Notes: generated by a model not told the origin, from the letters alone. A stretch of DNA of 64,000 nt from Candidatus Poribacteria bacterium (GCA_963663765.2 CAXXUA010000004.1:736001-800000), one strand, 5' to 3'. Shown: positions 14,514 to 55,443, numbered from the stretch's first letter. Numbers and translations are program-made.

Positions 14514-15017
14514 TTAACACTTTGCCTTTCATAAGGTTGAAACATAACGTCTGATTAACAAGGTGTTTTATAGTTACTACTTGGTCTTACTACACCACTT
14601 ATTTATAGACATAGTAAGACGAATTTCAATAAAATTCAATGCATACACGTTATTATAATGTGGACAATTTCAGTCTGTTTATAGTATATCATTAAACCAC
14701 TGTGAATTCAAAAAGATTAACGAACAAACAGGGTTATTTAGTTTTCCTCTTATATTCGGTAGGAACGACCCAGTGAATGCCATTGGGCAAATGCGCGTAT
14801 GGCATTCGCCATGATTCATACCATTGATTTAATAGTCACGACCGTTCCCTGTGTTGGTAGGAACGACCAGAAGGTCGCTCCTACTGAATAAAAGAATAGA
14901 ATCCTTACATGACAGTAATTATGGTAAATTGTAGAAATGTAAACTTATTTTCAAATTTAACCATAAATAGATTGTAATTATATCAAAATCTTGAATTATA
15001 GTTGTGATATAAATATA

Positions 15018-15465
15018 CAGGGTTATTTAGATTTACTGAAAGTTAATACACGGGTTCGGTTTCCTAACCGAACTTTATGCATCAATTTTAGATTATTGAA
15101 ACATGAACATCGCTCTTTAGTGGTTTTCTTGCTATGTATTTATAATATGTTTCCATTGATGATCTCCTACTTAAACGGATGACTACTGGATTCTTCAGCA
15201 ATAGACTTTTATTTTATGCTAAAATTAATTGCCGAAAGAACCACTAAATGGTTTACTCGCTAAACATTTATTATGAACACAACTTAGTAATAGATTCAAA
15301 AGCCTCCTACCCCCGCTTGCAGGGGATAAAGTGGGGTTGGATTTAGGGAATTCAAAACACAATAACTTAGCGAGTCAACCACTAAAGAACTGGACAAGAT
15401 GGCACTCCATAAAATTAACGACATAGCAAAATAAAATCAAAAATATTGAAAACTAAATAACCCTG
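15018..15465. mobile_element. MITE with CAGGGTTATT(C/T)AG...AACT(G/A)AATAACCCTG ends (ISAs1-like termini), carrying nested elements
   Basis: Terminal inverted repeats; arms homologous to 62619-63083; nested 15249-15381 element with CTAAA duplication. Confidence 0.65.
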
Positions 15466-15664
15466 TTACTTTCCAAAGGAGTTCTCACCTTATGGAAAAT
15501 CTATGGTTTCAGTATTGAAAATGTAGTTACTTTATTTTATTTGATGGTTTTTCAATGACTGCAAATCTTGTATAGCCATTTTCGGAGTTGCGATAATCCA
15601 CAGTTTCCCATTTCATGTATACATCATGCATTCTCATGATAACATAATCTGTATTTTTACTATT

Positions 15665-16755
15665 CAGGACTTACGCAGTCTCAAAGATTATCGATGGATT
15701 TGAGAGTTGATATCGCATATAATCATCCAATAAACTTTGTTTAAGTTCATAAATTGTTTTGCCAAGTTTACGCGCAACACGTTTCAAACAGACCCATATT
15801 TGAAAACAACAGGCAATATGATTTCTTTGGGCACGCAACTTGCGACATTGACATTTGCCAATACCCGTGACTTGTTTGATCTCACGATGGAGTTGTTCAA
15901 TCTTCCAACGTATACGACATTCTTGGTGTGCCGCATCCGCATCCGATTGAGATAAATCGTTTGTCACAATATATTCCGTGCGCCCGGTAGAGGAGGCTAT
16001 CCGGAACAACTTGACTTGATACCCTTTTGGAAACTTCTTGATGTGCACGCTTTTCCCTTGCCGGATTTCTGTCCGGGTCCAAGATAGGTCTTGGACTTGT
16101 TGGTGCGGTTGCTCGCCATCCGTATCGTTTACAAGACGATTTCGTTTCAGGGGCACGTAGTAAATCTTAGAAAGTTTTTCAATCGCTTTCATAACTTGCA
16201 TGGAGGCATACCAAGTATCCATTAGCACCGTCCGAAACGGTATCTGTTTTTTAGAGTAAGCGTTGTGCAACATTTCCAGTAAATGGTCTATTTTGGTTTT
16301 ACCATCATGATCTATGTCATAAATACGGTAATCAATAATCCAATACTCTTCTGTCTTTGGATTGACATAGATACACGTCACAATACCAATGCCTTTAACG
16401 ACTTTTTTGTCGCTACCACTCCACTGAGAACGGAGGACCTCAATCTCTTTCGCATAGAGTTTAGGTAGCACAACATCGTCAAAAACAATGTAGCCATCAT
16501 CATCAAACTCAATGTCGTTTTTGACCGAGTTCCAAAGTTCATTCGCGGGGATGTTTTCACCGCTCAGAAACCGATTGATTTGATCGTGGCTCCACTTATC
16601 AGTATGGTCTGCCATATAGGTTTGTGTAAAGTTTGTAAAACTTGATAACAAAAATTGACAATAATCTGAATATAAACTTTGTTTCTTTTCGGAAAGTGTA
16701 AATGTAATCATAATGGAATAGTATAGCACAAATCTATTATAGTGCGTAAGTCCTG
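15665..16755 (-). mobile_element. IS701-family insertion sequence (1091 bp)
   Basis: TIRs CAGGACTTACGCA / TGCGTAAGTCCTG, 5-bp target duplication CTATT (15660-15664 and 16756-16760), transposase inside. Confidence 0.9.
15671..16711 (-). CDS. IS701-family DDE transposase
   Basis: SHDQINRFL, IVFDD, VLMDTWY, RWKIEQLHREIKQVTG, CQCR..RAQRNHI. Confidence 0.9.
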   Translation of the reverse strand: MITFTLSEKKQSLYSDYCQFLLSSFTNFTQTYMADHTDKWSHDQINRFLSGENIPANELWNSVKNDIEFDDDGYIVFDDVVLPKLYAKEIEVLRSQWSGSDKKVVKGIGIVTCIYVNPKTEEYWIIDYRIYDIDHDGKTKIDHLLEMLHNAYSKKQIPFRTVLMDTWYASMQVMKAIEKLSKIYYVPLKRNRLVNDTDGEQPHQQVQDLSWTRTEIRQGKSVHIKKFPKGYQVKLFRIASSTGRTEYIVTNDLSQSDADAAHQECRIRWKIEQLHREIKQVTGIGKCQCRKLRAQRNHIACCFQIWVCLKRVARKLGKTIYELKQSLLDDYMRYQLSNPSIIFETA

Positions 16756-20508: not shown

Positions 20509-20630
20509 TAGGACTTACGCAGTTTTCATGATTTGATGAAAAATTATGACGAAAATTGTGTAATTTTCAGCATTTTTTCGGTTTCCAGCGCGCCTACAAA
20601 GCACGCCTACAACTGGGTGCGTAAGTCCTG
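20509..20630. mobile_element. 122-bp IS701-derived MITE
   Basis: (T)AGGACTTACGCA...TGCGTAAGTCCTG, duplication TAAAG. Confidence 0.85.
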
Positions 20631-21414: not shown

Positions 21415-21809
21415 AAACATATCGTCCCTACGGGACTAAAGAGCTTGGAAGGGAACTCGTTTTCTATCAACATATCGTCCCTACGGGACTAAAGAGCTTG
21501 GAAGGGAACTCGTTTTCTATCAACATATCGTCCCTACGGGACTAAAGAGCTGTGGAGTGTATTCTTTTTCTATAAACATATCGTCGCTACCAAATCAACG
21601 CCAAATGCGCCAAATCAACGGTATGAATGCCATTAAGGCATTCCCCATAAGGCATTTGTCGGGACTAAAGAGCTGTTGAGTGTATTCTTTTTCTATAAAC
21701 ATATCGTCGCTACCAAATCAACGCCAAATGCGCGTATGGCATTTGGCGGGACTAAAGATTTGTGTAGGGTTTTCGTTTTCTCTAAACATATCGTCCCTAC
21801 GGGACTAAA
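21415..21809. repeat. Tandem array of six ~53-bp REP-like units (AACATATCGTCCCTACGGGACTAAAG core)
   Basis: Period 53; two units interrupted by 34-70 bp hairpin inserts; reverse-complement family at 62740-63005. Confidence 0.85.
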
Positions 21810-23407: not shown

Positions 23408-24622
23408 ATGATAACACGATTTAATATTCCATTAATTCTGGGATTGTGTTTCATGTTTAGCATCAATGCTGATGCAGATACAAATCCGTTTTCAGTTTCT
23501 GGTTATGGTGTAATCAACTATGCACATTATGATTGGGACTTAGATCCAAACAGGCGCGCATCAATTGACATAGAACGTTTTGTTGTTGCTCCAAAATACC
23601 AAATCAGTGACATAATCCGACTTGAAGCGGAAATAGAGTTTGAACACGGTGGTACTGGCAGCACTATGGAATTTGACAAATTCGAAGAATTCGGTGAATT
23701 TGAGATGGAGATTGAAAAAGGTGACGAAGTCATTGTAGAAAAACTCGCTGCTGTTTTTTCATTACACCCATATCTCAATTTCCGCGTTGGACATATAATT
23801 GTTCCCGTTGGACTTGTTTCAAAAAGACACAGACCACAACACTACTTTACCACAACCCGACCCGAAGCAGAAACTCATCTCATTCCGACCATTTGGCACG
23901 AGACAGGAGTTGAAACATTTGGCTCCTTCGGTCCATTGTATTATCAGGTACAAATAGTCAACGGGTTGGATTCTACTGGATTTAGTTCCCGTCATTGGAT
24001 AGTACCTGGACGCCAATTACGATTTGAGACGGTCAACGCTGAAGCACCTGCATTCGTCGGTCGGCTTGAATATGTGTTTGATGAGAATGTAACCGTTGGT
24101 GTATCTGGCTACTTTGGAGACTCAGCTGCAAATCGTCCAAAACCAGACGTAGATTTTGACGCACACGTCAGTATCCTGAGTGTTCACGGGTTTTACGAGT
24201 TAAATGCTTTGAAAGTGAGAGGGTTGTTCTTGTGGGGCGCACTTCAAAACGCTGATAAATTGTCAAGAGTCAACCGATCTCTTTCAAATAATCTGAATGT
24301 AAAACGTACCCCCTTAGGCAGCTCAGCATTGGGTTGGTACATTGAAGCAGGATATGATGTATTATCATTTCTTACAAACGCTGATACATACTTTCAAGAA
24401 TTGGATGTATTTGCACGTTTTGATTATTATGATACTATGGCAAGTGTAGAAGGAATTATCTTTGACAACCCACGTTGGGAAAGAGCTACCTGGACATTTG
24501 GCGTAAATTACCATGTTCACCCAAAGATGGTTTTCAAATGTCATTATTCATTACGCAGATTAGCTGAAATAGATGAAAACAAAGAAAATACTTTTTCACT
24601 TGGTCTCGGTTTTCAATACTAA
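23408..24622 (+). CDS. Outer-membrane beta-barrel porin-like protein (imelysin-associated)
   Basis: Signal peptide, EIEFEHGG motif, alternating beta strands, C-terminal GLGFQY. Confidence 0.75.
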   Translation: MITRFNIPLILGLCFMFSINADADTNPFSVSGYGVINYAHYDWDLDPNRRASIDIERFVVAPKYQISDIIRLEAEIEFEHGGTGSTMEFDKFEEFGEFEMEIEKGDEVIVEKLAAVFSLHPYLNFRVGHIIVPVGLVSKRHRPQHYFTTTRPEAETHLIPTIWHETGVETFGSFGPLYYQVQIVNGLDSTGFSSRHWIVPGRQLRFETVNAEAPAFVGRLEYVFDENVTVGVSGYFGDSAANRPKPDVDFDAHVSILSVHGFYELNALKVRGLFLWGALQNADKLSRVNRSLSNNLNVKRTPLGSSALGWYIEAGYDVLSFLTNADTYFQELDVFARFDYYDTMASVEGIIFDNPRWERATWTFGVNYHVHPKMVFKCHYSLRRLAEIDENKENTFSLGLGFQY

Positions 24623-24672
24623 CAAATAATATTGCGGTTAAACACCGCAGAAAAAAATAAAATGGAGACATT

Positions 24673-25767
24673 ATGAAGATCTATATTATGAAGATCTATA
24701 AAGTTTGGACATTGTTCTGTTTTTTCCTATTAGCAATCTCGCTTGTTATAGGATGTGATGGTGATGAAGACGAACAAGATGATGATGCAGCATTCAATGC
24801 AAGTGCAATGTTAGATGATTTCGCTAATACTGTTATATTGGCTACATATACCGATTTGGATAACAAAGCAGGAGAACTACTGGCAGCTGTTAACACATTA
24901 GCAGAAGAAAACACTCAAGCAAATCTCGTAAATGCACAACAAGCATGGGTCGCTACAAGAACGCCTTGGGAACAGAGCGAAGCCTTCTTATTTGGTCCTG
25001 TTGACACACAAGGTCTTGATCCCGCTTTAGATAGTTGGCCCGTTAATCAAGTTGATTTACAACAGGTCTTGGATGGTGACGATGAATTAACTAAAGAACA
25101 TGTCGCTGGATTAGAAGAGACACTGAAGGGTTTTCACACTATTGAATTTCTGCTGTTCCGCAATGGTGATCAACGAATAGCATCAGATATAACAGTTCGT
25201 GAAATGCAATACCTTGTTTCAACGACAGAGATTCTAAAAGATAGTACTTTACAACTGAAACTTGCTTGGACACAAGAAGGTGAAAATTTTAGCAATACTA
25301 TAACTACTGCTGGGGAAGGAAATCCTGTCTATCCGTCACAAAGTTCAGCAGTACAGGAAATGGTTAACGGTATGATCACTATTGCTGATGAAGTTGCGAA
25401 TGGAAAAATATCCGATCCATTTACCGAATCGAATACAACACTCGTAGAATCACAATTCAGTTACAACTCTATATCAGACTTCCAAGATAACATACGCGGA
25501 ATTCAGAATGTTTACATGGGTAAATACGAAAGTGATGGGGAAGGACTAAATGAATTTGTGAAAAGTCAGGATGCTGACTTAGATAGCAGATTTCAGACTG
25601 AAATACAAACTGCTATTGACACAATCGGTGCAATTCCTAAACCTTTCCGAGAGTCAATTACAACACACCGTCCAGATGTTCAGGATGCTATTGATGCTGT
25701 TAGTACTGTTCATTTAACACTTCAACAGGACATTCTTCCACTTATTCAAAGAAGTGAGTTTAATTAA
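24673..25767 (+). CDS. Imelysin-family (IrpA-like) iron-regulated lipoprotein
   Basis: Lipobox VIGC, WEQSEAFLFGP, DSWP, GFHTIE (GxHxxE), ESQFS. Confidence 0.9.
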   Translation: MKIYIMKIYKVWTLFCFFLLAISLVIGCDGDEDEQDDDAAFNASAMLDDFANTVILATYTDLDNKAGELLAAVNTLAEENTQANLVNAQQAWVATRTPWEQSEAFLFGPVDTQGLDPALDSWPVNQVDLQQVLDGDDELTKEHVAGLEETLKGFHTIEFLLFRNGDQRIASDITVREMQYLVSTTEILKDSTLQLKLAWTQEGENFSNTITTAGEGNPVYPSQSSAVQEMVNGMITIADEVANGKISDPFTESNTTLVESQFSYNSISDFQDNIRGIQNVYMGKYESDGEGLNEFVKSQDADLDSRFQTEIQTAIDTIGAIPKPFRESITTHRPDVQDAIDAVSTVHLTLQQDILPLIQRSEFN

Positions 25768-28234: not shown

Positions 28235-28267
28235 GAACAGCTTAAATTCACAGATAGAACTACAGTA

Positions 28268-40307: not shown

Positions 40308-40344
40308 ATTTTATTGTTTTGTATTCAATCAGAGTAATATACCT

Positions 40345-41209: not shown

Positions 41210-41231
41210 GGACTTCCTCCTATATTACGTT

Positions 41232-41813: not shown

Positions 41814-41954
41814 ATTTTTTGCCAGACTTTCTTTTTGTTTTGAACAACTGATTCTTGTAACGTTTATATTTTTGATTCAGTTTACAAATTATAGGATTTT
41901 TTGTCAAAATTATACATTATTTTTGACAAACATTCAAACAACAGAAATTCTTGG

Positions 41955-42662: not shown

Positions 42663-42873
42663 AATTCTTGGAAACCCTTGTGAAGTGTTGTATCTGATCC
42701 ATTATTTTCATTATTAAGGGCTGTTATCTATAAAATTATTTGTTGCTTTATGAGTTTTAATTGGATGTATTGTTTAAAAAATGTTTCCAAATGGACACTT
42801 TTTTCGTTTTTTTGGTAACATTTTAAAATGGTTGTATACCCTGTTATAGAAAGGATTAGTAAGTGCTTCTTAC

Positions 42874-43094
42874 CCTACACTCCGCACTTGTTTTAATACA
42901 TTTTTATAATATTGGGATAAACCCGCATCACATAAGGATTCGCACATTATAATGGAGATTATGAGTTATATATTTGAGACAACCCAACTTGCTATTTTGT
43001 CATTTTAAAATTGAAAATGTTTGCTAAATGTAGTTTCCACACGGGTTTATCAAATTATTATTGAAAAACGCAAATCAGAAGTGCGGAGTGTAGG
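42874..43094. mobile_element. 221-bp MITE
   Basis: TIR CCTACACTCCGCACTT / AAGTGCGGAGTGTAGG, 6-bp duplication TCTTAC. Confidence 0.8.
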
Positions 43095-43355
43095 TCTTAC
43101 TGTTCTTGAAAAATATTTTTCCGTGTAAGTGTAACATTTTTATCTCTTGTTTTTTCGGGGGTCAGAATGTGTCATTTTTGTAAAATCGCTATTATATTTT
43201 GTTATATATCTGATATGTAATATATATTGTAACATAAATAATAGTGTGTGTCAGGTCTTTATTATATAATTTATTGAGGGTGTGTGAAGTTTTCATTGTA
43301 TTATCAGATTAAATCAGATAAAATAATACAAAACACTATTTGTGGAGGTTATTCC

Positions 43356-44375: not shown

Positions 44376-44391
44376 ACAAGTGTCCGAAATA

Positions 44392-44419
44392 ACAAAGCCG
44401 CCGGTATAGGCGGCTTTGT
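44392..44419. terminator. Bidirectional terminator hairpin
   Basis: ACAAAGCCGCC-loop-GGCGGCTTTGT between convergent genes. Confidence 0.7.
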
Positions 44420-44444
44420 CTATAGGATCATATACAAATATTTT

Positions 44445-45311
44445 TTACCAGACAGATTTTATTCTGCCCCAGGTAGTTGTTGCCTTATTGTCAGGTTCAA
44501 CAGATGTAACTGGATCGGGACTTAGAATTACTAAACCTGTATTCTCACTCTGTTTTGGACCATTGACGATACAATCGGTATACCAACCACTCCACCCCTT
44601 TTGTCCTGGAGTATCTGAATCACCGTCATTAACGCTGACAGCAAAACCGAATTCGTAACCTTCAGAGAATTCTCCACCTTCAATTTGCAATTCCTCTGCA
44701 GAAAATCTGTATTCGTAATAGGTTTCCTTATCGTCTTCGTTTCGGGTAATAGCGACATTTTGACCTGCGACAAGACCAGGACTACCGTGTGTACTTTCAT
44801 TATGTAAAATGATGTCTTGTGCGTTGCCGCTTATGGCAGCGTTATATAGAAAGAGTCTTAGTCCGGCTTCACGCATTCCAGTTGGTTCAAAACCGATTTG
44901 CGCGCTATCGCCATTCCATGCAGCACCACCATTCTGGTGTTCGTCATCCGTAACAGCGATTGCAAGATAAATTGCATCGGGTTCCCAGACGATTGCAAAA
45001 CAGGTTCTGTGGTCATCACGGTTATTCCATATTCCGCCACTCCATTCGCGGAAAACATAGATTTCACCGTCATTACCAGCAAATTCTACTTCGCAAAATG
45101 GTTCATCATTTGTACCTAAAACTGATTCAACGACACCTTCCCATCCTTCTTCATCATTAAGTACACCGTCAATGTCAATAGTAAGGTCATCAGATTTTTT
45201 AGGTGCATTATATACATCATGTGTTTCGCTTCGCCACTGTGCGTCAACATTGATTGTAAACAAAGTTCCAGTTGCAAATAGTGCAATAATCATCACAACA
45301 AATTTTTTCAT
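44445..45311 (-). CDS. Secreted CBM9/DOMON-like sugar-binding protein with C-terminal TWG motif
   Basis: IDIDGVLND, W...IYLAIAVTDD, VNDGD; ends KATTTWGRIKSVW. Confidence 0.75.
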   Translation of the reverse strand: MKKFVVMIIALFATGTLFTINVDAQWRSETHDVYNAPKKSDDLTIDIDGVLNDEEGWEGVVESVLGTNDEPFCEVEFAGNDGEIYVFREWSGGIWNNRDDHRTCFAIVWEPDAIYLAIAVTDDEHQNGGAAWNGDSAQIGFEPTGMREAGLRLFLYNAAISGNAQDIILHNESTHGSPGLVAGQNVAITRNEDDKETYYEYRFSAEELQIEGGEFSEGYEFGFAVSVNDGDSDTPGQKGWSGWYTDCIVNGPKQSENTGLVILSPDPVTSVEPDNKATTTWGRIKSVW

Positions 45312-45340
45312 AGAAAATCTCCTATAATAATTGATGTTTG

Positions 45341-45366
45341 TTTTTTGGGCAGAAAAGACTGCCCAG
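45341..45366 (-). terminator. Intrinsic terminator
   Basis: Minus strand CTGGGCAG-TCTTTT-CTGCCCA hairpin between the two paralogs; followed by an A-tract rather than a U-tract on this strand. Confidence 0.35.
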
Positions 45367-45427
45367 CCAGATTAAGTAGCAAATTCTATCGCTACGATTT
45401 ATTTGGTCATAGCCTCTACGAAAAACG

Positions 45428-46264
45428 TCATTTAGAGGCTTTAACTCTCCCCCAAGTTGTAGTTAGTTTGTTTCTTACATCCACAGCAAGTTCATCAGCT
45501 GAAAGTCTGACGAGTCCTGTATGTTCGCTTTGTTTTGGTCCCTTGACGATGCAATCTGTATACCAACCACTCCAACCTTTCTGTCCGGGAGCATTATCAT
45601 CTCCATCATTTACACAGATTGCAAGACCGAATTCAAAACCTTCTTCAAAATTGTCGCCTTTGTTAATTTCATCAGCTGTAAATTTGTATTCGTAATAGGT
45701 TTCATTTTCATTTTCATTTCGAACTACAGCGACATATTCACTATCATTAAGTCCAGTACCACCTGGTCTTTCATCGTGATAAATGAGGTTTTTTGCATCG
45801 TTGTCTAAAGCGACATTATAGAGTAATAATGCTAACCCACCATCGCGCTTACCGGACATTTCAAATCCAAGTTGTACACTGTCGCCATTCCAAGCACCTC
45901 CAGAATTCTGATGATCATCATCAGTAACACTGATAGCAAGATAGATTGCATCTTCATCCCATACAATTGCGAAGCATGTCTCATGATCTTCTGGACCGTC
46001 CCATGTCCCTCCATTTGCTTCCCATACTTCTTCCTTGCCACCAGCATCAAATTCAACACCACAGAAGGGTTCTCCATTTGTACCAGTAACCGATTCAATT
46101 ACATCTTCCCAACCTTCATCGTCATCCAGTTCACCATCAATTGTAATATCTGCGGGTATTTTAAGTGCGTTGTAAACGTCGTGTGTATCACTCCGCCATT
46201 GTGCGTGTGCAGTTATACTTGTAATCAAAAACAGTAGTGTAATTACAATGAAAAACTTTCTCAT
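45428..46264 (-). CDS. Secreted CBM9/DOMON-like protein (tandem paralog) with TWG motif
   Basis: Highly similar to 44445-45311; ends KLTTTWGRVKASK; start MRKFF after AGGAG. Confidence 0.75.
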   Translation of the reverse strand: MRKFFIVITLLFLITSITAHAQWRSDTHDVYNALKIPADITIDGELDDDEGWEDVIESVTGTNGEPFCGVEFDAGGKEEVWEANGGTWDGPEDHETCFAIVWDEDAIYLAISVTDDDHQNSGGAWNGDSVQLGFEMSGKRDGGLALLLYNVALDNDAKNLIYHDERPGGTGLNDSEYVAVVRNENENETYYEYKFTADEINKGDNFEEGFEFGLAICVNDGDDNAPGQKGWSGWYTDCIVKGPKQSEHTGLVRLSADELAVDVRNKLTTTWGRVKASK

Positions 46265-46393
46265 TATTTTTCTCCTTAGTTTGTACTTCAATGTATATCT
46301 CAAATTGCATGAACCATTAGCATTATGCAATTTTACTATAGTTTTATATTTTAACATATCTTTTTAGAAACGTCCACAAAAAGACATCGTTTA

Positions 46394-46597
46394 CAGGGTT
46401 ATTCAGCTATTGGTTTTTTGGTAGATATTTAAAACATTCGTGAATTAGAAACGTAGTCCAATAGAGCGTATGCGAAACCCGATATGTATTAATTGTGGTT
46501 ATCATGTCGGATTTCGCATAAGCTCTACCCGACCTACGATGTATACTCTAAATGAAATTCATCGACGACAAAGAATGCTTAAAACTGAATAACCCTG
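46394..46597. mobile_element. CAGGG-ended MITE enclosing a REP pair
   Basis: CAGGGTTATTCAG...CTGAATAACCCTG; flanks share CACAA(A/T)AAGACATCGTT. Confidence 0.65.
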
Positions 46598-46631
46598 CAC
46601 AATAAGACATCGTTGGCAATCAATATAAAGG

Positions 46632-48167
46632 TCAACGGTCTTCAATTGTTTTGTCTACCTCATCACTGCCTACGCAGAGAATATATCTGTCGCTTGATCC
46701 GATGTATAGTTTTTCGTTTGCGATGGCGGGTGAAGAAATGAATTTCAAGCCAGCTCTAATTGTCCTTGCATTGTATTTCCACAATACATCTCCATTTGCG
46801 ATATTTAGGCAATAGATCATCCCCGCTTCTGAGGTAACATACATTGTATTTTTCGTTACAGCAGGTGATGAGAGGACAGGACTGCCCAGAGGTTTTGTCC
46901 AGTGAATTTCTCCATTTGTGGCTTTGAGTGTGTAAACGAAACCATCTCGAGAACCGAATGTTACATAATCATTGTGAACGACAATTGCAGTAAGAACTCC
47001 GTCGCCTGCCTTATATTCCCAAACTATATCCCCGTTTTCTATGTTTAATGCGACTACTTTACCTTTAGGGTTTGGACCACTTTCAGCAAAAGTGGCTGTG
47101 CTAAGTCCGAAATAGACTAAGTTCTGATGTGAACTTGGATTTCCCCAGACAGAATACGGCATGGGTTGCGACCAGATTTCCTTACCTGTTTGTGCATCCA
47201 CAGCATAGATTTTATAGTCACCGTAGCCGGTACCGAAGAAAACCTTACCATCCTTTACCAGTGGGGACATGTCCGCATGTACTGCAGGGAAGTGCCAAAT
47301 TTGTTCACCAGCGAGTGCGTCAATACAGTAAACGCCATCTGCACCTGCTGTGAAGTATAGCCGACCTTTCGTGATGAATGGTGTTGACTCTACATGACTT
47401 GCGGTAGTGAAACTCCAGATAGGATCGCCTGTTTGCGCATCAAGACATCTGAGTTGGCACCCGCTATCTTCATGAAAACCTTCACCGATGTAGACTCTAC
47501 CTGCAACAACTGCGGGTGATGATGCGATAGCGATGTCAGAATCGTGTTGCCAGACAATCTCTTTTGTGTCAGTGTCAATACAGTAAGTTGTACCGCTGGA
47601 AGAAAAGAATCCGCCAATTGCTGCGCCGATATAAAGACGGTTACCGACGACTGCGGGTGATGAAAAGAATTGAACCATTTTTCTATTTTCAGCACTGAAT
47701 ACCCAAAATAGAGTTCCGTTTGCTGGACCGGGTAAACCATCAACATTGCCAGTACGATTTGCATCACCTCTAAATGTTGGCCATGTGTTCCCTACTCTGA
47801 TTTTGTTTTCATCTTGTTGTAGTTTGGTAACATCAACAGTTGGTGAGTTCTGTTTGATACCATTTTCAAGGACTTGGAAAGTTATCACTGCAAGTGCAAT
47901 TAACACAACAAGACTAACAAGCGAAACAATAGTTCTACGTACAGTGAAGAAATCGCGCACTTTGTAAAAGACCATCTTGGTTGTGTCTCGTGCGAATACA
48001 AGGGATGTGATTATTGCGACGCCGACAAATGCAAGTATCTGGGGAATGATACTAAGCAGTGCGGTCAAAGGACCAATCAGTTGTGGTATAACAGCATCTG
48101 CAGGAGCTGCAAAACAGACAGGAACTGATAATAAGCTTAATGTTAGTAACCAAGTGGTTTTTGACAT
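46632..48167 (-). CDS. Membrane-anchored PQQ-like beta-propeller protein
   Basis: N-terminal TM segments, WPTFRGD, SSPAV repeats. Confidence 0.85.
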   Translation of the reverse strand: MSKTTWLLTLSLLSVPVCFAAPADAVIPQLIGPLTALLSIIPQILAFVGVAIITSLVFARDTTKMVFYKVRDFFTVRRTIVSLVSLVVLIALAVITFQVLENGIKQNSPTVDVTKLQQDENKIRVGNTWPTFRGDANRTGNVDGLPGPANGTLFWVFSAENRKMVQFFSSPAVVGNRLYIGAAIGGFFSSSGTTYCIDTDTKEIVWQHDSDIAIASSPAVVAGRVYIGEGFHEDSGCQLRCLDAQTGDPIWSFTTASHVESTPFITKGRLYFTAGADGVYCIDALAGEQIWHFPAVHADMSPLVKDGKVFFGTGYGDYKIYAVDAQTGKEIWSQPMPYSVWGNPSSHQNLVYFGLSTATFAESGPNPKGKVVALNIENGDIVWEYKAGDGVLTAIVVHNDYVTFGSRDGFVYTLKATNGEIHWTKPLGSPVLSSPAVTKNTMYVTSEAGMIYCLNIANGDVLWKYNARTIRAGLKFISSPAIANEKLYIGSSDRYILCVGSDEVDKTIEDR

Positions 48168-48191
48168 AGGATCAACTCCGTTTAGGATGTA

Positions 48192-49361
48192 TCATTTCAA
48201 AGAATCAACTGCGTATCGGGTAAGATTCTCAATCAATGGTCGATTTTTTGAAGTATTTGATTTATTGTCGTTACGCATGTTTGTAATGAGATACATACCT
48301 TTTCCGTATTTTAGTTTTGCTACAACGATTTCCTTACCATTGTTAGTAGTTGCAAGCACTTCAAACTTGTCGTTCCACCCACTCCAAGAATCATCAAGCG
48401 AAAGTTGTCCAGAACGGATGTGATGTGGTGCTTTAAACAGATTACCTGCTTTTTCTGTGGGTTGAAAATCATTCCTACCTGTGCTTTCAACACCTTTCAG
48501 TGGTTCTGTTAACCAACCGATTCCGCTAGGTCGGTCATCATCGTTGTCCTGTCCAGAGACAATAACAATGCCGCCATCTTTAACAAATTCCTTAATCTGT
48601 TTTTCCTGATTTTTATTTAAGTGGTACCTACCATCATCAATTGCGCGGTACCCAAGCCATAATATATCAGTGTCGTCAAGATCTGACAAGTCACGTTCGG
48701 TTGTTTGTTCACATGCTATCCAACGTTTACCGACTTTATTGATTCCGGAAATAACCGGATGTTCTTCTTGATAGTTTCTTCTGTTCAATAGAAAGAGTCG
48801 TATGACACCGTCTTTTAGTAGTGCGCGGAGTTCTTTCTGAAGTTCAGGTGTAGAATCTCTACGTGAAACCTTGAATTGATTCAATTTCACTTCTGTATGT
48901 GTAAAATTCCATCTAATCCAACCTCTTTCCTTGTGTTTTGCAACCTGAAGTTGGAACCATATTCCTCTTGTATGTGCGAGACAATCAATTCGATCACCTT
49001 TTTTTAGATAACAGACAATAATCGGATCACCCTTTCTGAGTAATTTGTCAATCTCAGCACGATGATCTTTTTCACCTTTAAAGACATCATATCGAATTTT
49101 TATCACATCAAATTCACTCTTGCCTTTGATATTTTCCTCAACCTTAAAATCAGCGGTTTTTCGTTTAGTGTTTACATCTGAAATCGTTGCGAATACAACG
49201 TTACTGCTCTCACTGACAATTTCAGGGATAGTGTAAGGTCGGGAGATGTATGCATCTGTAATTGATTGTGCGAAAGTGAGAAAACAGACAGTAAGAATTA
49301 CCAATAAGTTTACATGTTTTCGTTGTATTTTATATTGATATGACAAATTATGGTTTTTCAC
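48192..49361 (-). CDS. Secreted hypothetical protein with possible class-I glutamine-amidotransferase-like C-domain
   Basis: Signal-like segment; QIKEFVKDGGIVIV, YGKGMYL. Confidence 0.55.
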   Translation of the reverse strand: MKNHNLSYQYKIQRKHVNLLVILTVCFLTFAQSITDAYISRPYTIPEIVSESSNVVFATISDVNTKRKTADFKVEENIKGKSEFDVIKIRYDVFKGEKDHRAEIDKLLRKGDPIIVCYLKKGDRIDCLAHTRGIWFQLQVAKHKERGWIRWNFTHTEVKLNQFKVSRRDSTPELQKELRALLKDGVIRLFLLNRRNYQEEHPVISGINKVGKRWIACEQTTERDLSDLDDTDILWLGYRAIDDGRYHLNKNQEKQIKEFVKDGGIVIVSGQDNDDDRPSGIGWLTEPLKGVESTGRNDFQPTEKAGNLFKAPHHIRSGQLSLDDSWSGWNDKFEVLATTNNGKEIVVAKLKYGKGMYLITNMRNDNKSNTSKNRPLIENLTRYAVDSLK

Positions 49362-49780
49362 AAAATTCCTCCTATATCATGGTGAAACTGAAAATAATTA
49401 TACCTTATACCAATTCAAATAAATCTTGTCTCATTAAGGAATTCTACTGTTTACTGGCAAGGGGTTACTCTCTTCGGTAGGAGCGACCCGGGGAATGCCA
49501 AAAGGCATTCATACCGTTGATTTGCCGGTCGCGACCGGGAGGTCGCTCCTACCAGATTTCCGCTGCTAATGAGACATTATCACATGAAAATGGTATTATT
49601 TTAGTTAGCTGCTCTGGCAGGTGTGCTATTAATTTTCGCTCTTGTATTATTCGGTAGGAGTAGCCTCCAAATCAAGTAATCAACGGTATGAATGCGTGTA
49701 TGGCATGCCACAGGTCGCTTCTACCTGTTAAGTGTGTAATTTAATTCCAAGATATACTATAAACAAAAGTCTTCACATAT

Positions 49781-50101
49781 CTATTTGAGTTTTACAGCAG
49801 TACCAGTTGCTGTTACCATCAACATGCCGTTGTTTGCACCGAGTACTTGATAATCAATGTCAATTCCGACGACTGCATCAGCCCCTTTCCGTTGTGCAAT
49901 TTCTTGTAATTCCATTATAGCAGTCTCGCGTGCATCTTCAAGTTTGCTCTCGTAGGTTTTTGATCTTCCCCCGATCATATCAGTAATACCAGCCATAAAA
50001 TCACGAAAGATATTTGCTCCCATGATTGCTTCGCCAGTTACTAAACCCAGATATTGTCCTATATCTCTACCTTCAATAGTGTTTGTCGTTGTGGTTATCA
50101 T
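49781..50101 (-). CDS. YbjQ/UPF0145 family protein
   Basis: TTNTIEG...GANIFRD...GGRS..YE...[12 protein letters not shown]...TGTAV. Confidence 0.9.
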
Positions 50102-51246
50102 TATTGTGATCTCCCTCTTGCTGTAATGTACCACACAGATTCGACGATTTCATCGCGGATCCCGTAATACTTGTCATGAAGATTAACAGTTGTACAACAG
50201 TGTGTTGGTAAAATCTCCAGTTTTTCTCCCGGTTTTAGTGAAATCTCAGCGTTTGAGTTGCGATTAAAGACTTGGTTAGGGGCTTGGTCAGAGACTTGCA
50301 TTATACCGTGTTCTTCGGATAGATATTCCATTTCAAGTTCTGGATAATCTATTGGTTGTGGAATTCCAAATTCCTCCGTAAGTACTTTCTTACCAGTGTC
50401 AACAATAATTCGATCTTGTGTTGGACGGCTGACGACAGTTGACAAGACAGTCAAAGCACAATCAAATTTATCACCGACGCCTTGTACGCCGCGATAGTTA
50501 GCATCCATAAAGACATAGGATCCAGCCTGTACCTCTGTTATTTCGGGTATGCTACCAGTTATGTCATAAGTTCCAGTTCCTCCACCACTCAAAATTGAAA
50601 CTTCAATGCCATTATTGATAAGAAGATCTGCTGTATTGAATAGACTTACCATTGCAGTAAGTGTAGCGTTTTTTCTATAATACTTTCCATTCTGTGTTAC
50701 GAGATGTCCCTCATAAGCCATCAAACCCTCAAACTTTAGCTTTGGACATTTGTTTACCTGTTGTGCTAATTTTAGAACTGGGTCTCTGGGTTCAACACCG
50801 CAGCGATTCATACCAATATTAATTTCAATCAAAATCCTTATTGTTACACCTTTTGCTGATGCTGCTTCAGATAGTTCTTGTACATTTTGAACGTCGTCCA
50901 CAGCGACCATTATCTCTGAATGCTTTGCGAGGTTAACAAGACGAGCAATTTTCTGTGTTCCAACTATTTGGTTTGCGATGAGTACATCACGTATACCTGC
51001 ATGAACGACTGCTTCTGCTTCTCCCAATTTTGCACATGTTACACCTATCGCTCCAGCTGCTATCTGTTTATGTGCGATTATCGGTGTTTTATGTGTTTTT
51101 ACATGAGGTCTTAGATTTGCATTTACTGTATCAAAATAACTCGCCATTTTCTGGATATTCGCTTCCATTTTATCCAGATCAATTAACAGTGCAGGTGTAT
51201 CTAAATCCGTTTTGTGTCTACCTATATAATGATTGGTGTTGTGCAT
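50101..51246 (-). CDS. DSD1 / D-threonine aldolase family PLP enzyme
   Basis: [34 protein letters not shown]. Confidence 0.9.
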
Positions 51247-51256
51247 GTAACACTTC

Positions 51257-51379
51257 CAGGACTTATGCAAAAAACGGTAGGCGTGCTTTTTAAGCTCGCT
51301 GGAAACCCTTAATAATGTTGATAATTACATCATTTTCATCACAATTCTTAATTAAATCAAGTATACTGCGTAAATCCTG
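51257..51379. mobile_element. IS701-derived MITE
   Basis: Degenerate TIRs, ACTTC duplication; fills the FAH-DSD1 intergenic gap. Confidence 0.8.
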
Positions 51380-51384
51380 ACTTC

Positions 51385-52338
51385 TTATAGTTGTTGTACA
51401 GGATTCGATAGTGTTCCGAACCCTTCAATATCTATCTTAACAACATCCTTTGGTGCGAGAGGTAAATCATTGGGTACAATTATACCAGTACCAGTGGAAA
51501 CGACAGTTCCGAATGGGATTGGGTTGTCTCGCATCAGAAATTCCGTGAGTTGTTCAAATTTCCAGTTTATTTGTGATGTGTTGACTTCACCTGTATAGAC
51601 TTCCTTTTCGTCCCGAATGATAGTGCATTTCATTTCAAGATTGTAGGGATCGTCAACTTCAGTGGTCGTAAGAAACATTGGTCCGAGTGCACAGCAACCG
51701 TAAAAGACCTTTGATTGCGGTAGATATAAAGGGTTTTCGCGTTCAATATCCCATGCGGAAACATCATTACAGAGTGTGTAACCAAGTATCTCACCTTCAG
51801 CATTTAGAATATAAGCGAGTTCTGGTTCAGTTGCAGTGAGTTTGGAGTCGCTTCGTATCCCGATATGTCCATTTGGACCGATGGTACGTGCTTGTGTTGC
51901 TTTGAAGAAAATCTCTGGTCTATCGGCGTGGTATACGCGGCTATATATATCTTGTTCAGAATCGTCATCTCGCATGTCAGCACTACGTTTGTAAGTTACG
52001 CCGCATCCCCACACCTCAGGTGCATCAATTGGAACAAGTAAGTGTGGTATATTCTCATCTGGAAACACATCCAATTTCTCTAAAGATAATCCGTAGTCTT
52101 CCTCAATTTCTGGTTCGGTATGGTGAAGTCTTGTGAACCGCATAGGAGGAGGTGCAGATACCTTTTCTTGTATATCAGCAAGGAGTACGCCAAGAGATAT
52201 CCGTTCTTCTTGTGCAAGTTTTAGTACATCTAAAACACTCGGTGACTCATCACTTGTTACATCAATTACGTGGTATTCACGTGTAACAACCCCGACTCGT
52301 TTACCTAAATTGGGTAAATGAAATTGGATCAGTTTCAT
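51385..52338 (-). CDS. Fumarylacetoacetate hydrolase family protein (2-keto-3-deoxy sugar acid dehydratase-like)
   Basis: EVWGCGVTYKRS, RPEIFFKA, EPEL, NDVSAWDIERENPLYLPQSK, TGTG. Confidence 0.85.
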   Translation of the reverse strand: MKLIQFHLPNLGKRVGVVTREYHVIDVTSDESPSVLDVLKLAQEERISLGVLLADIQEKVSAPPPMRFTRLHHTEPEIEEDYGLSLEKLDVFPDENIPHLLVPIDAPEVWGCGVTYKRSADMRDDDSEQDIYSRVYHADRPEIFFKATQARTIGPNGHIGIRSDSKLTATEPELAYILNAEGEILGYTLCNDVSAWDIERENPLYLPQSKVFYGCCALGPMFLTTTEVDDPYNLEMKCTIIRDEKEVYTGEVNTSQINWKFEQLTEFLMRDNPIPFGTVVSTGTGIIVPNDLPLAPKDVVKIDIEGFGTLSNPVQQL

Positions 52339-52350
52339 AGTTCTCCAACA

Positions 52351-52968
52351 CTATTTTCCCGATGGTATCAAAGAGTTCTTTTCAAGAAATGCGATAACTT
52401 TCTCTGCGGATTCTTTAATTGAAAGTTCTGCTGTATTAACAGCGACTTCTGGTATTGTTGGTGCTTCATAAGGTGCGCTGATACCAGTAAATTCTTTGAT
52501 TTCCCCAGACCGTGCTTTTTTGTACAATCCTTTTGGGTCACGTTCTTCACATACATCAAGCGGACAATCAACATAGACTTCCACAAATCTATTATCAGAT
52601 ATTAATTCCCTTGCTTGGTCACGGTCGGCGCGGTAAGGTGAAATAAATGCTGTCATCACTATCGTGCTTGCATCTACAAAGAGTTTAGCGACTTCACCGA
52701 CACGTCGTATATTTTCTTCTCGGTCCTCTGGAGAGAACCCTAAGTTTTTGTTCAACCCATGACGGACATTGTCTCCATCAAGTACATAAGTGTGATGGTT
52801 GCGCTCGTGTAATAGATATGCTACTGCGTTTGCTAAGGTAGATTTTCCTGAACCTGATAGACCTGTGAACCAAACGACACATCCTTTTTGGTTAAGCAAT
52901 TGTTCGCGATCTTCTGCTGTGACGGTTGTTTCATGCCACGTAATATTAGTTGATTTTTGTACTGACAA
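52351..52968 (-). CDS. cysC: Adenylyl-sulfate kinase
   Basis: WFTGLSGSGKST, LDGDNVR, RDPKGLY, FTGISAPYE. Confidence 0.95.
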   Translation of the reverse strand: MSVQKSTNITWHETTVTAEDREQLLNQKGCVVWFTGLSGSGKSTLANAVAYLLHERNHHTYVLDGDNVRHGLNKNLGFSPEDREENIRRVGEVAKLFVDASTIVMTAFISPYRADRDQARELISDNRFVEVYVDCPLDVCEERDPKGLYKKARSGEIKEFTGISAPYEAPTIPEVAVNTAELSIKESAEKVIAFLEKNSLIPSGK

Positions 52969-53448
52969 TAGTTGTTCCTCGTGATTTCCTGATAATTCTT
53001 TGATATAAATACATCGTTTCTCATAAATGCGGTTTTGTTCAATTTCACAAGAATGTGTGTCTGGTAAATCGGGGTTAGAAATTCCTCTACCATTTATGAG
53101 ATAGGTTGTAGTAAGTTCTAAATTCTGTTTTCAAGACAGTGTGGTTGAAGTTGAATGAATATATAGACGTTTAATTAAATAGTATATCAAATGTAAGTGC
53201 GAAGTGCAAATTTATATTGATCTGAGGGTATGTATAGTTTTTGGTATCTTGTCTGAACCAGGATTTTCTAATCAAGAATCAACGGTATGAATACCTTATG
53301 AAGTTTAATAAATAAATTAGGTAATGCTATCTAACCCACCATGGTAGGCGTGCTTTGTAAGCGCGCTGGCACATCAAGTCCCAACAGTGCGGTTAGGAAA
53401 CCGTACCTACCGGGTTTGGGAAAACTTATACTATCCGTTTAATAACTT

Positions 53449-53605
53449 CAGGACTTACGCAGTTTTCATGATTTGATGAAGAATTATGACGAAAATGGTG
53501 TAATTTTCAGCATTTTTTCGGTTTCCAGCGCCAAATCAACGGTATGAATGCCTTTTGGCATTCCCCGCCTACAAAGCGCGCCTACCGTTGGGTGCGTAAG
53601 TCCTG
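53449..53605. mobile_element. IS701-derived MITE with 35-bp insert (157 bp)
   Basis: AACTT duplication; near-identical inverted copy of 33256-33412. Confidence 0.9.
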
Positions 53606-53804
53606 AACTTAATCTTTATATGGCATTCCCCAGGGTATGAATGCCTCATGATATTCCCCGAGTCGCTCCTACCGAGAGGTTTCTCTATTCAAAATCCGAG
53701 TATATAGGAAAACGAGATAATCCTGCTATAGGAAAAATGTAATTGACTTTACCTTCGACATCTGATAGTATAATATTTCAAATAAATACTTTAGGAGACT
53801 TTTA

Positions 53805-54587
53805 ATGCATAAAAAGTTTATTACAATCGGGATCACTGCAATATTACTTTTAACAGTCAGTTACACTTATGCTTTAGAACAAAAAGATATCTTAGTTTTT
53901 TATTCGTTTGATATTCTTGATGGTAATATGATCAAGGACGAATCTGGAAAAAATCATGATGCCGAGTTAGTTGGAAATGGTGAACTCGTAGATGGAGAAT
54001 TTAATAAAGCAATCCATTTAACAGGTGGGGTCGTACATTTGAGTAATGCTAACGATGTTGTCAAACCCATCAGTGAGAATGGTGAATTTACGTTGGCAGC
54101 ATGGTTCTATTTAAATAGTCATGCGAATTATGATGGTATCGTATCAATTGAGGTGCCAGGTGGAGATTGCTGCGAATTTCGTATGATGGTAGATCCCAAT
54201 TTCAAGCCGTTTTGGGATGCAGCACATCATGTGGATAGAAAGTTGGATAATTTTACATTTGAATTAAATAAATGGTTCCACTACGTTTTAGTCGCTGATG
54301 GTAAGGATGGAAAAATTTTTGTTAACGGTGAATTTGTCGGATCGCAGCAAGAAAATTTTGAGTTTCCAAATTATGAAGAGGCATCAGTTTTCATTGGTGC
54401 GGGAGAAAGTCTCAATAGTCATAAAGTTGAGGACGCGCTTATTGATGAAGTCGCCATCTATTCAAAAGCATTGACTGAAAAAGAAGTTCAATCCTCTATG
54501 GAACTGGGTGTTAAGGGAGCTCTTGCTGTTGAAGCAGAACATAAATTAGCTCTTACTTGGGGCCAACTGAAATCAGAAAATAAATAA
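53805..54587 (+). CDS. Secreted LamG/concanavalin-A-like domain protein with TWG motif
   Basis: DESGKNHD, FTLAAW, WFHYV..D, IDEVAIYSKALT; ends KLALTWGQLKSENK. Confidence 0.85.
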   Translation: MHKKFITIGITAILLLTVSYTYALEQKDILVFYSFDILDGNMIKDESGKNHDAELVGNGELVDGEFNKAIHLTGGVVHLSNANDVVKPISENGEFTLAAWFYLNSHANYDGIVSIEVPGGDCCEFRMMVDPNFKPFWDAAHHVDRKLDNFTFELNKWFHYVLVADGKDGKIFVNGEFVGSQQENFEFPNYEEASVFIGAGESLNSHKVEDALIDEVAIYSKALTEKEVQSSMELGVKGALAVEAEHKLALTWGQLKSENK

Positions 54588-54707
54588 CTTCAATCATTTT
54601 GAGCTGGTAGGATTAGATAGTTTTAACATTTATTATATATTTTTTTGAGAAAATCGCGACCGGGAGGTCGCTCCTACTACGATACTTTTTTATTAAAATA
54701 TTAGGTA

Positions 54708-55443
54708 CAGGACTTACACAGTTTCTTGATTTAATCAGGAATTATGATGAAAATGATGTAATTATCAGCATTTTTACAGGTTTCCGGCGCGCTTACAAAG
54801 CACGCCTACCGTTGGGTGCGTAAGTCCTGATTAGATACAGGACTTACACAGTTTCTTGATTTAATCATGAATTATGATGAAAATGATGTAATTATCAGCA
54901 TTTTTACAGGTTTCCAGCGCGCTTACAAAGCACGCCTACCGTTGGGTGCGTAAGTCCTGATTAGATACAGGACTTACACAGTTTCTTGATTTAATCAGGA
55001 ATTATGATGAAAATGATGTAATTATCAGCATTTTTACAGGTTTCCAGCGCGCTTACAAAGCACGCCTACCGTTGGGTGCGTAAGTCCTGATTAGATACAG
55101 GACTTACACAGTTTCTTGATTTAATCAGGAATTATGATGAAAATGATGTAATTATCAGCATTTTTACAGGTTTCCAGCGCGCTTACAAAGCACGCCTACC
55201 GTTGGGTGCGTAAGTCCTGATTAGATACAGGACTTACACAGTTTCTTGATTTAATCATGAATTATGATGAAAATGATGTAATTATCAGCATTTTTACAGG
55301 TTTCCAGCGCGCTTACAAAGCACCAAATCATGTAATCAACGGTATGAATTCCTTATGGTATTCCCCGGGTATGAATCATGGAGCGTGCCATACGCGCATG
55401 CTTCTTTAGGCATTCACCGCCTACCGTTTTTGCATAAGTCCTG
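54708..55443. repeat. Tandem array of five IS701-derived MITEs (130-bp period)
   Basis: Units start at 54708, 54838, 54968, 55098 and 55228; ATTAGATA linkers; AGGTA flanks the whole array. Confidence 0.9.

Follow-up and report, generated by a model that had tools for sequence, protein, structure and literature searches.

Small nested hairpin repeats of 34–36 nt in a Candidatus Poribacteria genome as candidate minimal mobile DNA modules

How does a DNA repeat of 34–36 nt come to lie inside other repeats and inside its own copies? This question is raised by a stretch of 64,000 nt (hereafter, the window; contig 4, positions 736001–800000) from a Candidatus Poribacteria bacterium (GCA_963663765.2, CAXXUA010000004.1), whose genome of 6.35 Mb in 15 contigs was analysed here (G000; other G numbers denote related genomes). 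An earlier note, made from the window alone, had described a small asymmetric hairpin element in two forms, A and B, inserted into repetitive extragenic palindromes (REPs), miniature transposable elements with inverted repeats (MITEs), and itself. The observation of small nested hairpin repeats was confirmed. We propose that A, B, and two further families, C and E, form one superfamily of 34–36-nt non-autonomous mobile DNA modules, each consisting of a hairpin followed by the invariant tail GTTGATTT(G), and that a strand of about 35 nt would be mobilised in trans into exposed hairpin DNA and then amplified together with its hosts. To this reading, superfamily and mechanism taken jointly, we assign a probability of about 0.55.

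Anatomy of the units

Form A consists of a hairpin, ATACC, and GTTGATTT, and is present in approximately 500 copies in the genome. Its parts are a head H (GGGGAATGCC, a loop of 4–5 nt, and GGCATTCATACC), a linker G, and a tail T (TTGATTT), often followed by an extra 3′ G. When this extra G was excluded, 430 simple A units measured 34 nt (n = 172) or 35 nt (n = 258) and had no coding capacity, which bears out the earlier description of an unusually small unit. The core 12-mer ATACCGTTGATT, searched with at most one mismatch, matched the window 10 times against 0.49 expected, and none of 100 shuffled sequences reached this number. The B-specific 12-mer GGCGTTGATTTG matched twice, at 21591 and 21714, a count that 4 of 100 shuffles reached and that is weak by itself. 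In the whole genome, the two 12-mers had 518 and 145 matches, respectively.

The tail is common to several hairpins. Among 2347 GTTGATT sites in the genome, 424 were preceded by CATTCATACC (A), 130 by CGCATTTGGC (B), and 14 by CGCTTCTGAC (family C). Family C reads GACAGAAGCC-AAAC-GCGCTTCTGAC and family E reads GCCGAATGCC-ATAG-GCGCATTCGGC, each followed by the tail. The stems of families B, C, and E differ, their loop core and tail are the same, and B-type stems vary while the tail stays constant. The 5′ starts are GGGGAATGCC in A and GCCAAATGCC in B, and neither form has a GTAG tag of its own. D-type heads (…CCATGATTCATACC) occur about 45 times genome-wide.

The copies are highly similar to each other. 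More than half of the 516 innermost A units were letter-identical to one of four masters, distinguished by their loops (TAAAT, 103 units; AAAA, at least 79; TTAAT, 47; ATACG, 36), and the information content fell sharply beyond the GGGG…GTTGATTT borders. A perfect 7-bp stem was found in 356 of 522 A units, and the compensated stem variants GAATGCT/AGCATTC and GAATACC/GGTATTC occurred in 19 and 16 units, respectively, versus 17 one-sided mismatches at those two pairs. The folds computed for single-stranded DNA were hairpins of 7 bp for A (−7.2 kcal/mol, z −2.8) and of 9 bp for B (−9.5 kcal/mol, z −3.2), with the tail unpaired in each. The ends of A (GGGGAAT… and …GTTGATTT) are not terminal inverted repeats.

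Copies in the window, their hosts, and their taxon range

The A, B, nested, and degenerate copies listed in the earlier note were all present when the sequence was read at each position, as were the three empty sites that it had cited. The features of the window are given below; the tandem array was detected with Tandem Repeats Finder, and the others were read directly.

33295–33329, plus strand: form A with an AAAA loop, ending in …GTTGATTTG, within a MITE, in a REPgc hairpin whose 3′ arm it interrupts at GTAGGC^GCGCTGG
33717–33752, plus strand: form A with a TTAAT loop, at GGTAGGC^GTGCTTTGTAAGCGCGC, the tag/stem boundary of REPgc
42466–42535, plus strand: A in A (head-C-head-G-tail-C-tail), after the GTAGG tag of REP2 (…CGATCTCCGAATCGCGAC)
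49490–49524, plus strand: form A in the loop of a REP3 hairpin (GTAGGAGCGACC…GGTCGC)
49668–49714, minus strand: two-tailed degenerate A-type unit in a host resembling REP3 (tail match)
53532–53566, minus strand: form A with an AAAA loop, inside the repeated copy of the MITE seen at 33256–33408
53270–53660, minus strand: nested A pair split by a MITE, with two heads at 53620–53660 and the right arm and two tails at 53270–53296
55324–55418, minus strand: composite at GGTAGGC of REPgc, made up of an A head with an inner GCATGCGCGTATGGCA-type (D-type) hairpin, a nested A, and a pair of degenerate tails
21591–21660, minus strand: form B (hairpin and GTTGATTTG) with form A (21611–21646) in its loop at ATAC^GCGC
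21714–21747, minus strand: form B of 34 nt, in a 53-bp tandem unit, whose hairpin loop it enters at GTCCC^GTAGGGAC
21416–21590, plus strand: array of the 53-bp tandem unit, 3.3 copies, the host of B in its empty state
14772–14830, plus strand: degenerate D-type A in a REP3 loop (tail match with one mismatch)
20585–20597, minus strand: empty site GTAGGC^GCGCTGG, junction 20591/20592, the only one of this exact form genome-wide
53343–53356, plus strand: empty site GGTAGGC^GTGCTTTG
63472–63500, plus strand: degenerate remnant consisting of the right arm and ATTGATTT

The A units inside A (42466) and inside the loop of B (21611) are thus directly legible, and the former folds as two hairpins (−13.8 kcal/mol, z −3.6). 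Empty GTCCC^GTAGGGAC sites lie within the 53-bp units at 21416–21590; this unit, which contains a GTCCC-TAC-GGGAC hairpin, is the main host of form B. Positions 53453–53605 are identical at 100% to 33256–33408, a whole MITE having been copied with A inside. MITEs insert in turn into A loops. The pieces at 53270 and 53620 are present, although they are not the separate degenerate copies for which they had been taken; they are the halves of one nested pair, whose inner head loop is split by a MITE of about 320 bp. MITE insertion into A loops accounts for these two pieces of the window; genome-wide, 13 right halves of A adjoin the same MITE end.

Apart from the repeats, the window carries two tRNA genes (7747–7819 and 7845–7916; Rfam RF00005, 73 and 72 bits, respectively) and encodes a PorX-like regulator.

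A was nearly confined to other repeats, namely REPs, MITEs, B loops, and A itself, and empty paralogous sites were found for these hosts, as the earlier note had maintained. The main hosts were REPgc (G[TC]AGGC-GTGCTTTGTAAGCGCGC), often within a MITE with CAGGACTTACGCA ends, the B loop, the head/tail joint of A, and REP2 and REP3 of the GTAGGAG… type, besides a few further families. At least nine unrelated host contexts with empty paralogues were distinguished: the REPgc tag, the REPgc 3′ arm, the B loop, the A joint, the REP2 tag, the REP3 loop (in both orientations), a family designated host 7, the TAATCC family, and a unique hairpin. In another species, A was found in the tag and in the loop of REP1. 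The A sites with unique flanking 20-mers were visibly degenerate members of the same host repeats. The genome-wide numbers of filled and empty sites were as follows.

REPgc tag: 215 filled (GTAGGCGG[GT]GAAT), 359 empty (GTAGGCG[TC]GCTTTGTAAGC)
B loops: 62 filled with A, 63 empty
B in the hairpin of the 53-bp unit: 91 filled, 489 empty
REP3: 21 filled, 577 empty
GCTTTGTAGGC^GCGCTGG: 33 filled, 1 empty, plus 195 of the GTAAGC form
Host 7: approximately 14 filled, 21 empty

Comparison of filled with empty sites revealed no target duplication and no terminal inverted repeats, again in accordance with the earlier note, and the GTAGGC beside A proved to be host REP sequence, present in the empty sites. 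The left flank was C in approximately 93% of the 430 simple A units, and the other 31 followed the tail of another unit. The commonest left flanks were GGTAGG-C, TGTAGGC, and TGCAGGC (151 together), CATACC-C (102), GCCATA-C (47), and several xCC-C classes. Adenine at position −4 carried 1.4 bits, a value that comes from non-independent copies, and the bases between it and the C varied (AGGC, ACCC, ATAC).

The unit is specific to one lineage. With at most one mismatch, a 16-mer of A was found in all 39 genomes of the genus (5–566 matches) and in 63 of the 65 genomes of a sister genus (1–290). Elsewhere it stayed at chance level: four further genera of the family, represented by seven genomes, had 0–1 matches per genome, and 65 genomes of other families had 0–3; the reversed control gave 0–2. 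The B-type pattern (GCGC-N7-tail) was found in 38 of the 39 genomes of the genus, with up to 289 matches, and another genus had 8 copies; in the sister genus that has A, B was at chance level only. A and B thus have different taxon ranges and the same tail. In one related genome of 4.8 Mb (G024, contig 1), about 40 A copies are crowded into 115 kb at 4.35–4.47 Mb, and seven identical 35-nt units form a tandem array at 1044374–1044602.

It is improbable that the unit serves chiefly as a signal in cis (for instance, a site bound by a protein, or a structure formed in RNA or DNA) that selection maintains and that owes its abundance to usefulness and not to selfishness. Such a signal would explain the letter-level conservation across two genera, the hairpin conserved with compensation, and the intergenic position of nearly all copies; only 7 of 415 de-duplicated A sites lay inside open reading frames (ORFs) of at least 300 aa, though such ORFs cover 64% of the genome. 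However, species of one genus differ widely in their number of copies, from 2 to 484, and the locus orthologous to the 33.3-kb site has no MITE in 11 other species and no A save one copy at an unplaced position (L018). The residence of A in other selfish repeats and in itself, up to seven heads deep, is hard to reconcile with a signal, and no Rfam family matched the A unit.

Proposed mobilisation, junctions, and independence of the copies

In the preferred reading, a putative dedicated trans-acting protein that reads single-stranded DNA by its shape would bind the hairpin and make its cuts at set distances, immediately 5′ of the hairpin and immediately 3′ of the tail. The resulting single strand of about 35 nt would be joined 3′ of a C in DNA prone to single-strandedness: the tag/stem boundary or loop of a REP, the B loop, or the head/tail joint of another A. 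The inserted copies would then multiply with their hosts (REPs, MITEs, and tandem arrays), and stacked heads would be lost by slippage. The tail is invariant and lies at a constant distance 3′ of the hairpin, whose sequence is free to change if it remains paired; this pattern fits a structure-specific single-strand enzyme. The range of unrelated host contexts, the use of two positions in one REP family, the occupation of REP3 in both orientations, and the repeated invasion of resident units argue that the unit itself is mobile. The results that weigh against mobilisation in trans concern the junctions, the dependence of the copies on their hosts, the comparison of strains, the orientation of the copies, and the distribution of candidate enzymes.

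Junctions were compared with exact 12-nt anchors in 266 clusters that have an empty paralogue. The clean C^G junctions of the earlier note held for its three cited sites and for the main classes, and failed genome-wide for the REP-tag, REP3-loop, and A-in-A classes. Clean junctions were AGGC^GTG (insert H-G-T-G, 77 clusters), ATAC^GCG (44 clusters), CCC^CGCC (insert H-G-T), and, in another species, CTCC^GATT in the REP1 loop. At REP tags, two or three bases were replaced, AG(G) becoming C[A], as in the change from GTAGG-AG-CGATCTCC to GTAGG-C[H-G-T]-CGATCTCC (15 clusters), and G024 had the same AG replacement after REP1 and REP3 tags. In the REP3 loop, whose commonest empty form is ACC-TCC-CGG (354 copies), ACC-TC-CCGG became ACC-C[H-G-T]G-CCGG with TC replaced, and ACC-T-GCC became ACC-C[..]C-GCC. 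For A in A, CATACC-G-TTGATTT became CATACC-C[A]C-TTGATTT. Precise cut-and-paste by an HUH enzyme does not predict such replaced bases. The rule of insertion that the earlier note had hoped to derive from filled and empty hosts did not emerge from their alignment; no single rule was found to fit all classes. Five models were tried by hand and rejected, namely insertion of [unit+G] after C, insertion of [C+unit], a one-base duplication with a permuted circle, core-base exchange, and P-nucleotides; none of them accounted at once for the classes REPgc, B loop, host 7, REP tag, REP3 loop, and A in A.

Within nested clusters, heads are stacked to the left and tails to the right (H-C-H-G-T-C-T), the innermost tail beginning with G and every outer tail with C. 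In the genome, CATACCGGGGG has no occurrence and CATACCCGGGG has 126, and a possible pre-made target, CATACCCTTGATT, has only 4. The 65 strict head-head pairs comprised 38 combinations of host, outer loop, and inner loop, the outer loop varying with the host and the inner loop being AAAA in most cases; the C/C/G/C junction was shared by 55 of the 65. So many combinations alongside one recurrent junction indicate that resident units were invaded repeatedly and that each invasion ended in the same peculiar way. By numbers of heads and tails, respectively, the clusters were (1,1) in 251 cases, (1,2) in 89, (2,2) in 58, and (2,1) in 3, with a maximum of seven heads; we infer that the surplus of tails reflects tandem heads lost by slippage.

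The earlier note had treated the copies as insertions. The empty paralogues agree with this, but many copies are not independent, given that MITEs are copied whole with A inside, at 93–100% identity (100% for the pair in the window). Loop types are distributed by host (51 TAAAT units in REPgc, 30 TTAAT units in B loops, and 11 AATA units, a type confined to REP2), and many copies therefore spread with their hosts. REP2 with A (AATA loop) is a composite family of 15 clusters that is common to two species (G000 and G024). Host-tracking loops, copied MITEs, and the shared REP2 composite together indicate that much of the copy number is hitch-hiking, and truly independent insertions may number only tens.

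Comparison of related genomes gave the lineage specificity and the missing MITE described above. Neither short-read contigs nor 80 metagenome loci allowed any orthologous site to be shown filled in one strain and empty in a close relative. Six sequencing runs, sponge metagenomes among them, contained at least half of the words of a 10-kb stretch, and the contigs of four were compared with positions 36000–55999. All short-read contigs ended at the repeat clusters (approximately 42.0–43.2, 49.43–49.57, 53.37–53.58, and 54.68–55.40 kb), where the joints are paralogous repeats and are uninformative on presence or absence. At least 120 metagenome stretches carried the 20-mer searched for; among the 80 loci compared, only two aligned to G000 at 98%, each as a single block of 2.5–2.9 kb with no matching flanks, leaving no usable near-identical strain locus among them. 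Viral contigs gave no A matches, and the nearest species has 88% identity at the test locus and fragmented contigs. The orientation of de-duplicated copies relative to GC skew was only weakly biased, with an odds ratio of 0.67 (p = 0.048), a figure that comes from weak skew and unordered contigs. Separately, one contig of a related strain (run X6) joins 51251 directly to 51380, thus lacking 128 intergenic bases (51252–51379) between two genes, and the same strain has unlike sequence of similar length in place of about 1.4 kb at 44510–45911, where two minus-strand ORFs lie (44445–45311 and 45428–46357).

These results bear on a possible, though in our view doubtful, alternative in which no dedicated mobilisation takes place. 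A few chance insertions would have been amplified passively with their hosts, REPs by REP-associated tyrosine transposases (RAYTs), MITEs by DDE transposases, and tandem arrays by slippage, followed by copying guided by homology or microhomology (gene conversion, template switching at stalled forks, or single-strand annealing). The tracking of hosts by loops and the composites copied whole (the MITE with A; REP2 with A in two species) are what it would predict, tails that equal or exceed heads are expected from slippage loss, and tandem arrays of 35–36-nt period exist. The replaced bases and the invariant C…C could be copied from a donor template with flanking homology, and there are A-rich genomes that lack Y1, IS110, and reverse transcriptase. 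Against it stand the exact ends of the unit in non-homologous hosts and in both orientations of REP3, the 38 combinations of resident and invader, and a right-hand homology of just 7–8 nt at A-in-A sites. The invariant tail with variable, compensated stems also resembles a protein recognition site, and an exact 16-mer has been kept in more than 100 species of two genera.

Candidate enzymes, known systems, and significance

Mobilisation in trans calls for an enzyme, and the earlier note had placed it outside the window. No candidate gene was found among the 12 of the 42 window ORFs of at least 150 aa that were scanned, and a genome-wide Y1 scan had no match inside the window. The genome encodes four IS200/IS605 tnpA genes and two RAYTs. 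RAYT-1 (225 aa; NF047646, 121 bits; contig 4, 621400–622077) belongs to a REPtron at 620161–623487 (L005), about 115 kb upstream of the window, and lies between an array of 118-bp period and a long array (37/40-nt spacing) of REP1 (GTAGGAGGGAACTCCGATTCCCGAC) and REP2 (GTAGGAGCGATCTCCGAATCGCGAC); it is flanked by these REP arrays, not by A or B. RAYT-2 (contig 10, approximately 24500–25277; L006 870–1632) has a frameshift or was miscalled, and the end of the contig truncates it. Some eight units of REPgc (CTGCAGGCGTGCTTTGTAAGCGCGC), the main host of A, precede it in tandem, and the first of them carries an A with an ATACG loop. This position behind a REPgc array lends appeal to a RAYT that would act at the GTAGG(C) tag. 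Neither A nor B motifs lay within 1.5 kb of the four tnpA loci, the sole exception among the Y1 loci being the A in the array before RAYT-2.

Across genomes, the HUH/Y1 proposal of the earlier note fared poorly. Y1_Tnp had no match in G024 (one contig), G001 (four contigs), or G010, which contain 122–191 A matches, and the ratio of exact to one-mismatch matches in these genomes (0.51–0.69) was not below that of the RAYT-bearing G017 and G002 (0.41–0.49), indicating that their A copies are no more decayed. NF047646 scored above its cut-off in 18 of 31 genomes, and among the 25 genomes with both counts, those with RAYTs were not richer in A. At 18 RAYT loci of 15 other genomes, REP1 or REP2 motifs flanked five, and B-like units lay beside RAYTs only in G012 and G043. 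In the latter (L107, 2680–2722), 270 bp from the RAYT gene, there is a double-tailed B-like palindrome, AATCAAC-GCCAAATAC…GGCATTTGGC-GTTGATT, whose ends pair like the inverse core sites of attC. An HUH/Y1 mobiliser is thus unproven and poorly supported, and the distribution across genomes does not require a RAYT. Within the reading of mobilisation in trans, a RAYT-type HUH enzyme is nevertheless the most concrete candidate in G000, with about one chance in three.

Other enzyme families, tested in five genomes, fared no better. The IS110 transposase (PF01548) had no match in any of the five, with control matches in 7 of 14 genomes. Integron integrase (TIGR02249) was not found above cut-off in the five genomes. 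This model also rings on Xer-type recombinases, in 13 of 14 control genomes; at an E-value of 1e-10, it had no match in four poribacterial genomes and one weak match in G000, and tyrosine recombinases may be few or divergent in these genomes. The IS91 Y2 domain (PF04986) had no match in the five genomes and was silent in all 14 control genomes as well. IS91 and other rolling-circle elements insert adjoining GTTC/CTTG, and stacked A tails begin with CTTG. The Uma2 nuclease (PF05685) was rejected as an agent, its expansion being equal in genera without A; nearly all of 51 genomes of the family have 6–54 matches each, an expansion otherwise typical of cyanobacteria and Deinococcus-Thermus.

The reverse transcriptase domain (RVT_1) was found in none of the A-rich genomes G000, G024, G017, and G001, its only match being in G003, which has two A copies. 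Spread through RNA, in which the unit would be transcribed, reverse-transcribed, and inserted, is accordingly very improbable. The surplus of tails could recall reiterative copying at the 3′ end, yet there is no series of 5′ truncations, the apparent ones being MITE splits.

We consider it scarcely credible that the motif is the mere end of a known larger insertion sequence or MITE. The genome does have a very high repeat load, with 378 repeated regions of at least 600 bp in a census of 25-mers present at least three times, and the 13 right halves noted above adjoin one MITE end. These halves, however, are A units split in the loop, with the matching left half present, and most units are flanked directly by host repeat that is continuous in empty copies. 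The repeated regions were clustered into gene families, of which the top 20 were annotated as TnpB, several DDE types, Uma2, WD40, and unknowns. In a search for an autonomous partner, the ends of four repeat families were inspected; the three readable ones, including the commonest, were unrelated to A, and L081 had no definable ends. The near absence of A and B around the Y1 loci speaks against a larger element as well. Commonest among the repeat gene families is a TnpB that stands alone (27 copies; the element measures about 1.4 kb), and two multi-copy ORF families have no Pfam match (495 aa, 18 copies; 437 aa, 13 copies).

Tentatively, the machinery may be none of the Y1/Y2 HUH enzymes, DEDD transposases, reverse transcriptases, or integron-type integrases; it would copy a strand of about 35 nt into exposed hairpins by a route not yet recognised, a proposal that we regard as possible rather than probable. 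If it is true, this route would be recognisable by one to three replaced target bases, with G becoming C[unit]C at the unit's own head/tail joint and AG(G) becoming C[unit] after GTAGG. Minimal mobile DNA would in that case be a general class, as yet unexplained, of which Poribacteria and Nostoc provide two independent examples.

The closest known system appears to be the small dispersed repeats (SDRs) of Nostoc, a likeness drawn from descriptions. SDR1–SDR8, of 21–27 nt, were reportedly described by Elhai and colleagues in 2008 in Nostoc punctiforme and relatives, and an RNA route is said to have been proposed for them; such a route is unlikely here because no reverse transcriptase was found in A-rich genomes. 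By these descriptions, SDRs and A alike are far below MITE size, lack coding capacity, form hairpins with compensatory changes, and nest in other repeats and in their own copies. Both insert precisely at a short specific site without duplication (SDR5 sits between bases 3 and 4 of HIP1), each is confined to one coherent lineage, and the mobiliser is unexplained in both. Unlike the SDRs of Nostocaceae, A is longer (34–36 versus 21–27 nt) and belongs to the phylum Poribacteria; HIP1 shows no enrichment there (58 matches to the palindrome, counted on both strands). One 3′ tail is common to several hairpin families in the present case, and the hosts are GTAG-type REPs and MITEs.

A does not pass the defining tests of REPs and REPINs, of derivatives of IS200/IS605 or IS110, of MITEs of DDE type, or of attC sites. 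Like REPs and REPINs with their RAYTs, it is a short extragenic hairpin in hundreds of copies of a kind thought to move single-stranded without duplication; RAYT genes and GTAG REP arrays occur in G000, and A inserts at the GTAGG(C) tag of these REPs. However, A and B have no GTAG (or CGTC) tag of their own and do not flank the two G000 RAYT genes. Their units stand singly, nested, or in direct tandem, not as inverted doublets, and persist at 120–190 copies in genomes without Y1. IS200/IS605 elements such as IS608 and ISDra2 have asymmetric ends with a subterminal hairpin, are cleaved some 13–14 nt 3′ of it, and insert 3′ of a short motif. A resembles them in its asymmetry, its hairpin and 3′ end, its lack of duplication, and its preference for DNA able to be single-stranded. 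It differs in having one hairpin instead of separate left- and right-end hairpins, ends unrelated to those of resident IS605 and TnpB elements, no clear replication-strand bias, and replaced junction bases. In contrast to DDE-type MITEs, A has neither terminal inverted repeats nor target site duplications. The A/B tail GTTGATT resembles an attC core site (RYYYAAC…GTTRRRY) but has no 5′ partner, apart from the one double-tailed B, and a mini element of the IS110/IS1111 type is not matched, there being no DEDD transposase in the five genomes. Palindromic mini-repeats of organelle genomes, such as yeast mitochondrial GC clusters and the palindromic repeats of Volvox (PMC2670323), are likewise short hairpins that spread through non-coding DNA and into each other; no conserved single-stranded tail is known to have been described for them. 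The present units are bacterial, have other sequences, and carry a conserved tail.

Literature searches gave no description of such repeats in Poribacteria, which is no proof of their absence from print. Mobile DNA below about 50 nt comprises, to our knowledge, essentially one bacterial case, the Nostoc SDRs, whose mechanism has been open since 2008. The units described here provide a second, unrelated lineage with hundreds of near-identical copies of a minimal mobile repeat, and several hairpin families on one tail, many complete long-read genomes, and a reproducible odd junction rule make the question testable. For this sponge symbiont itself, the A units and their hosts break short-read assemblies at every site examined.

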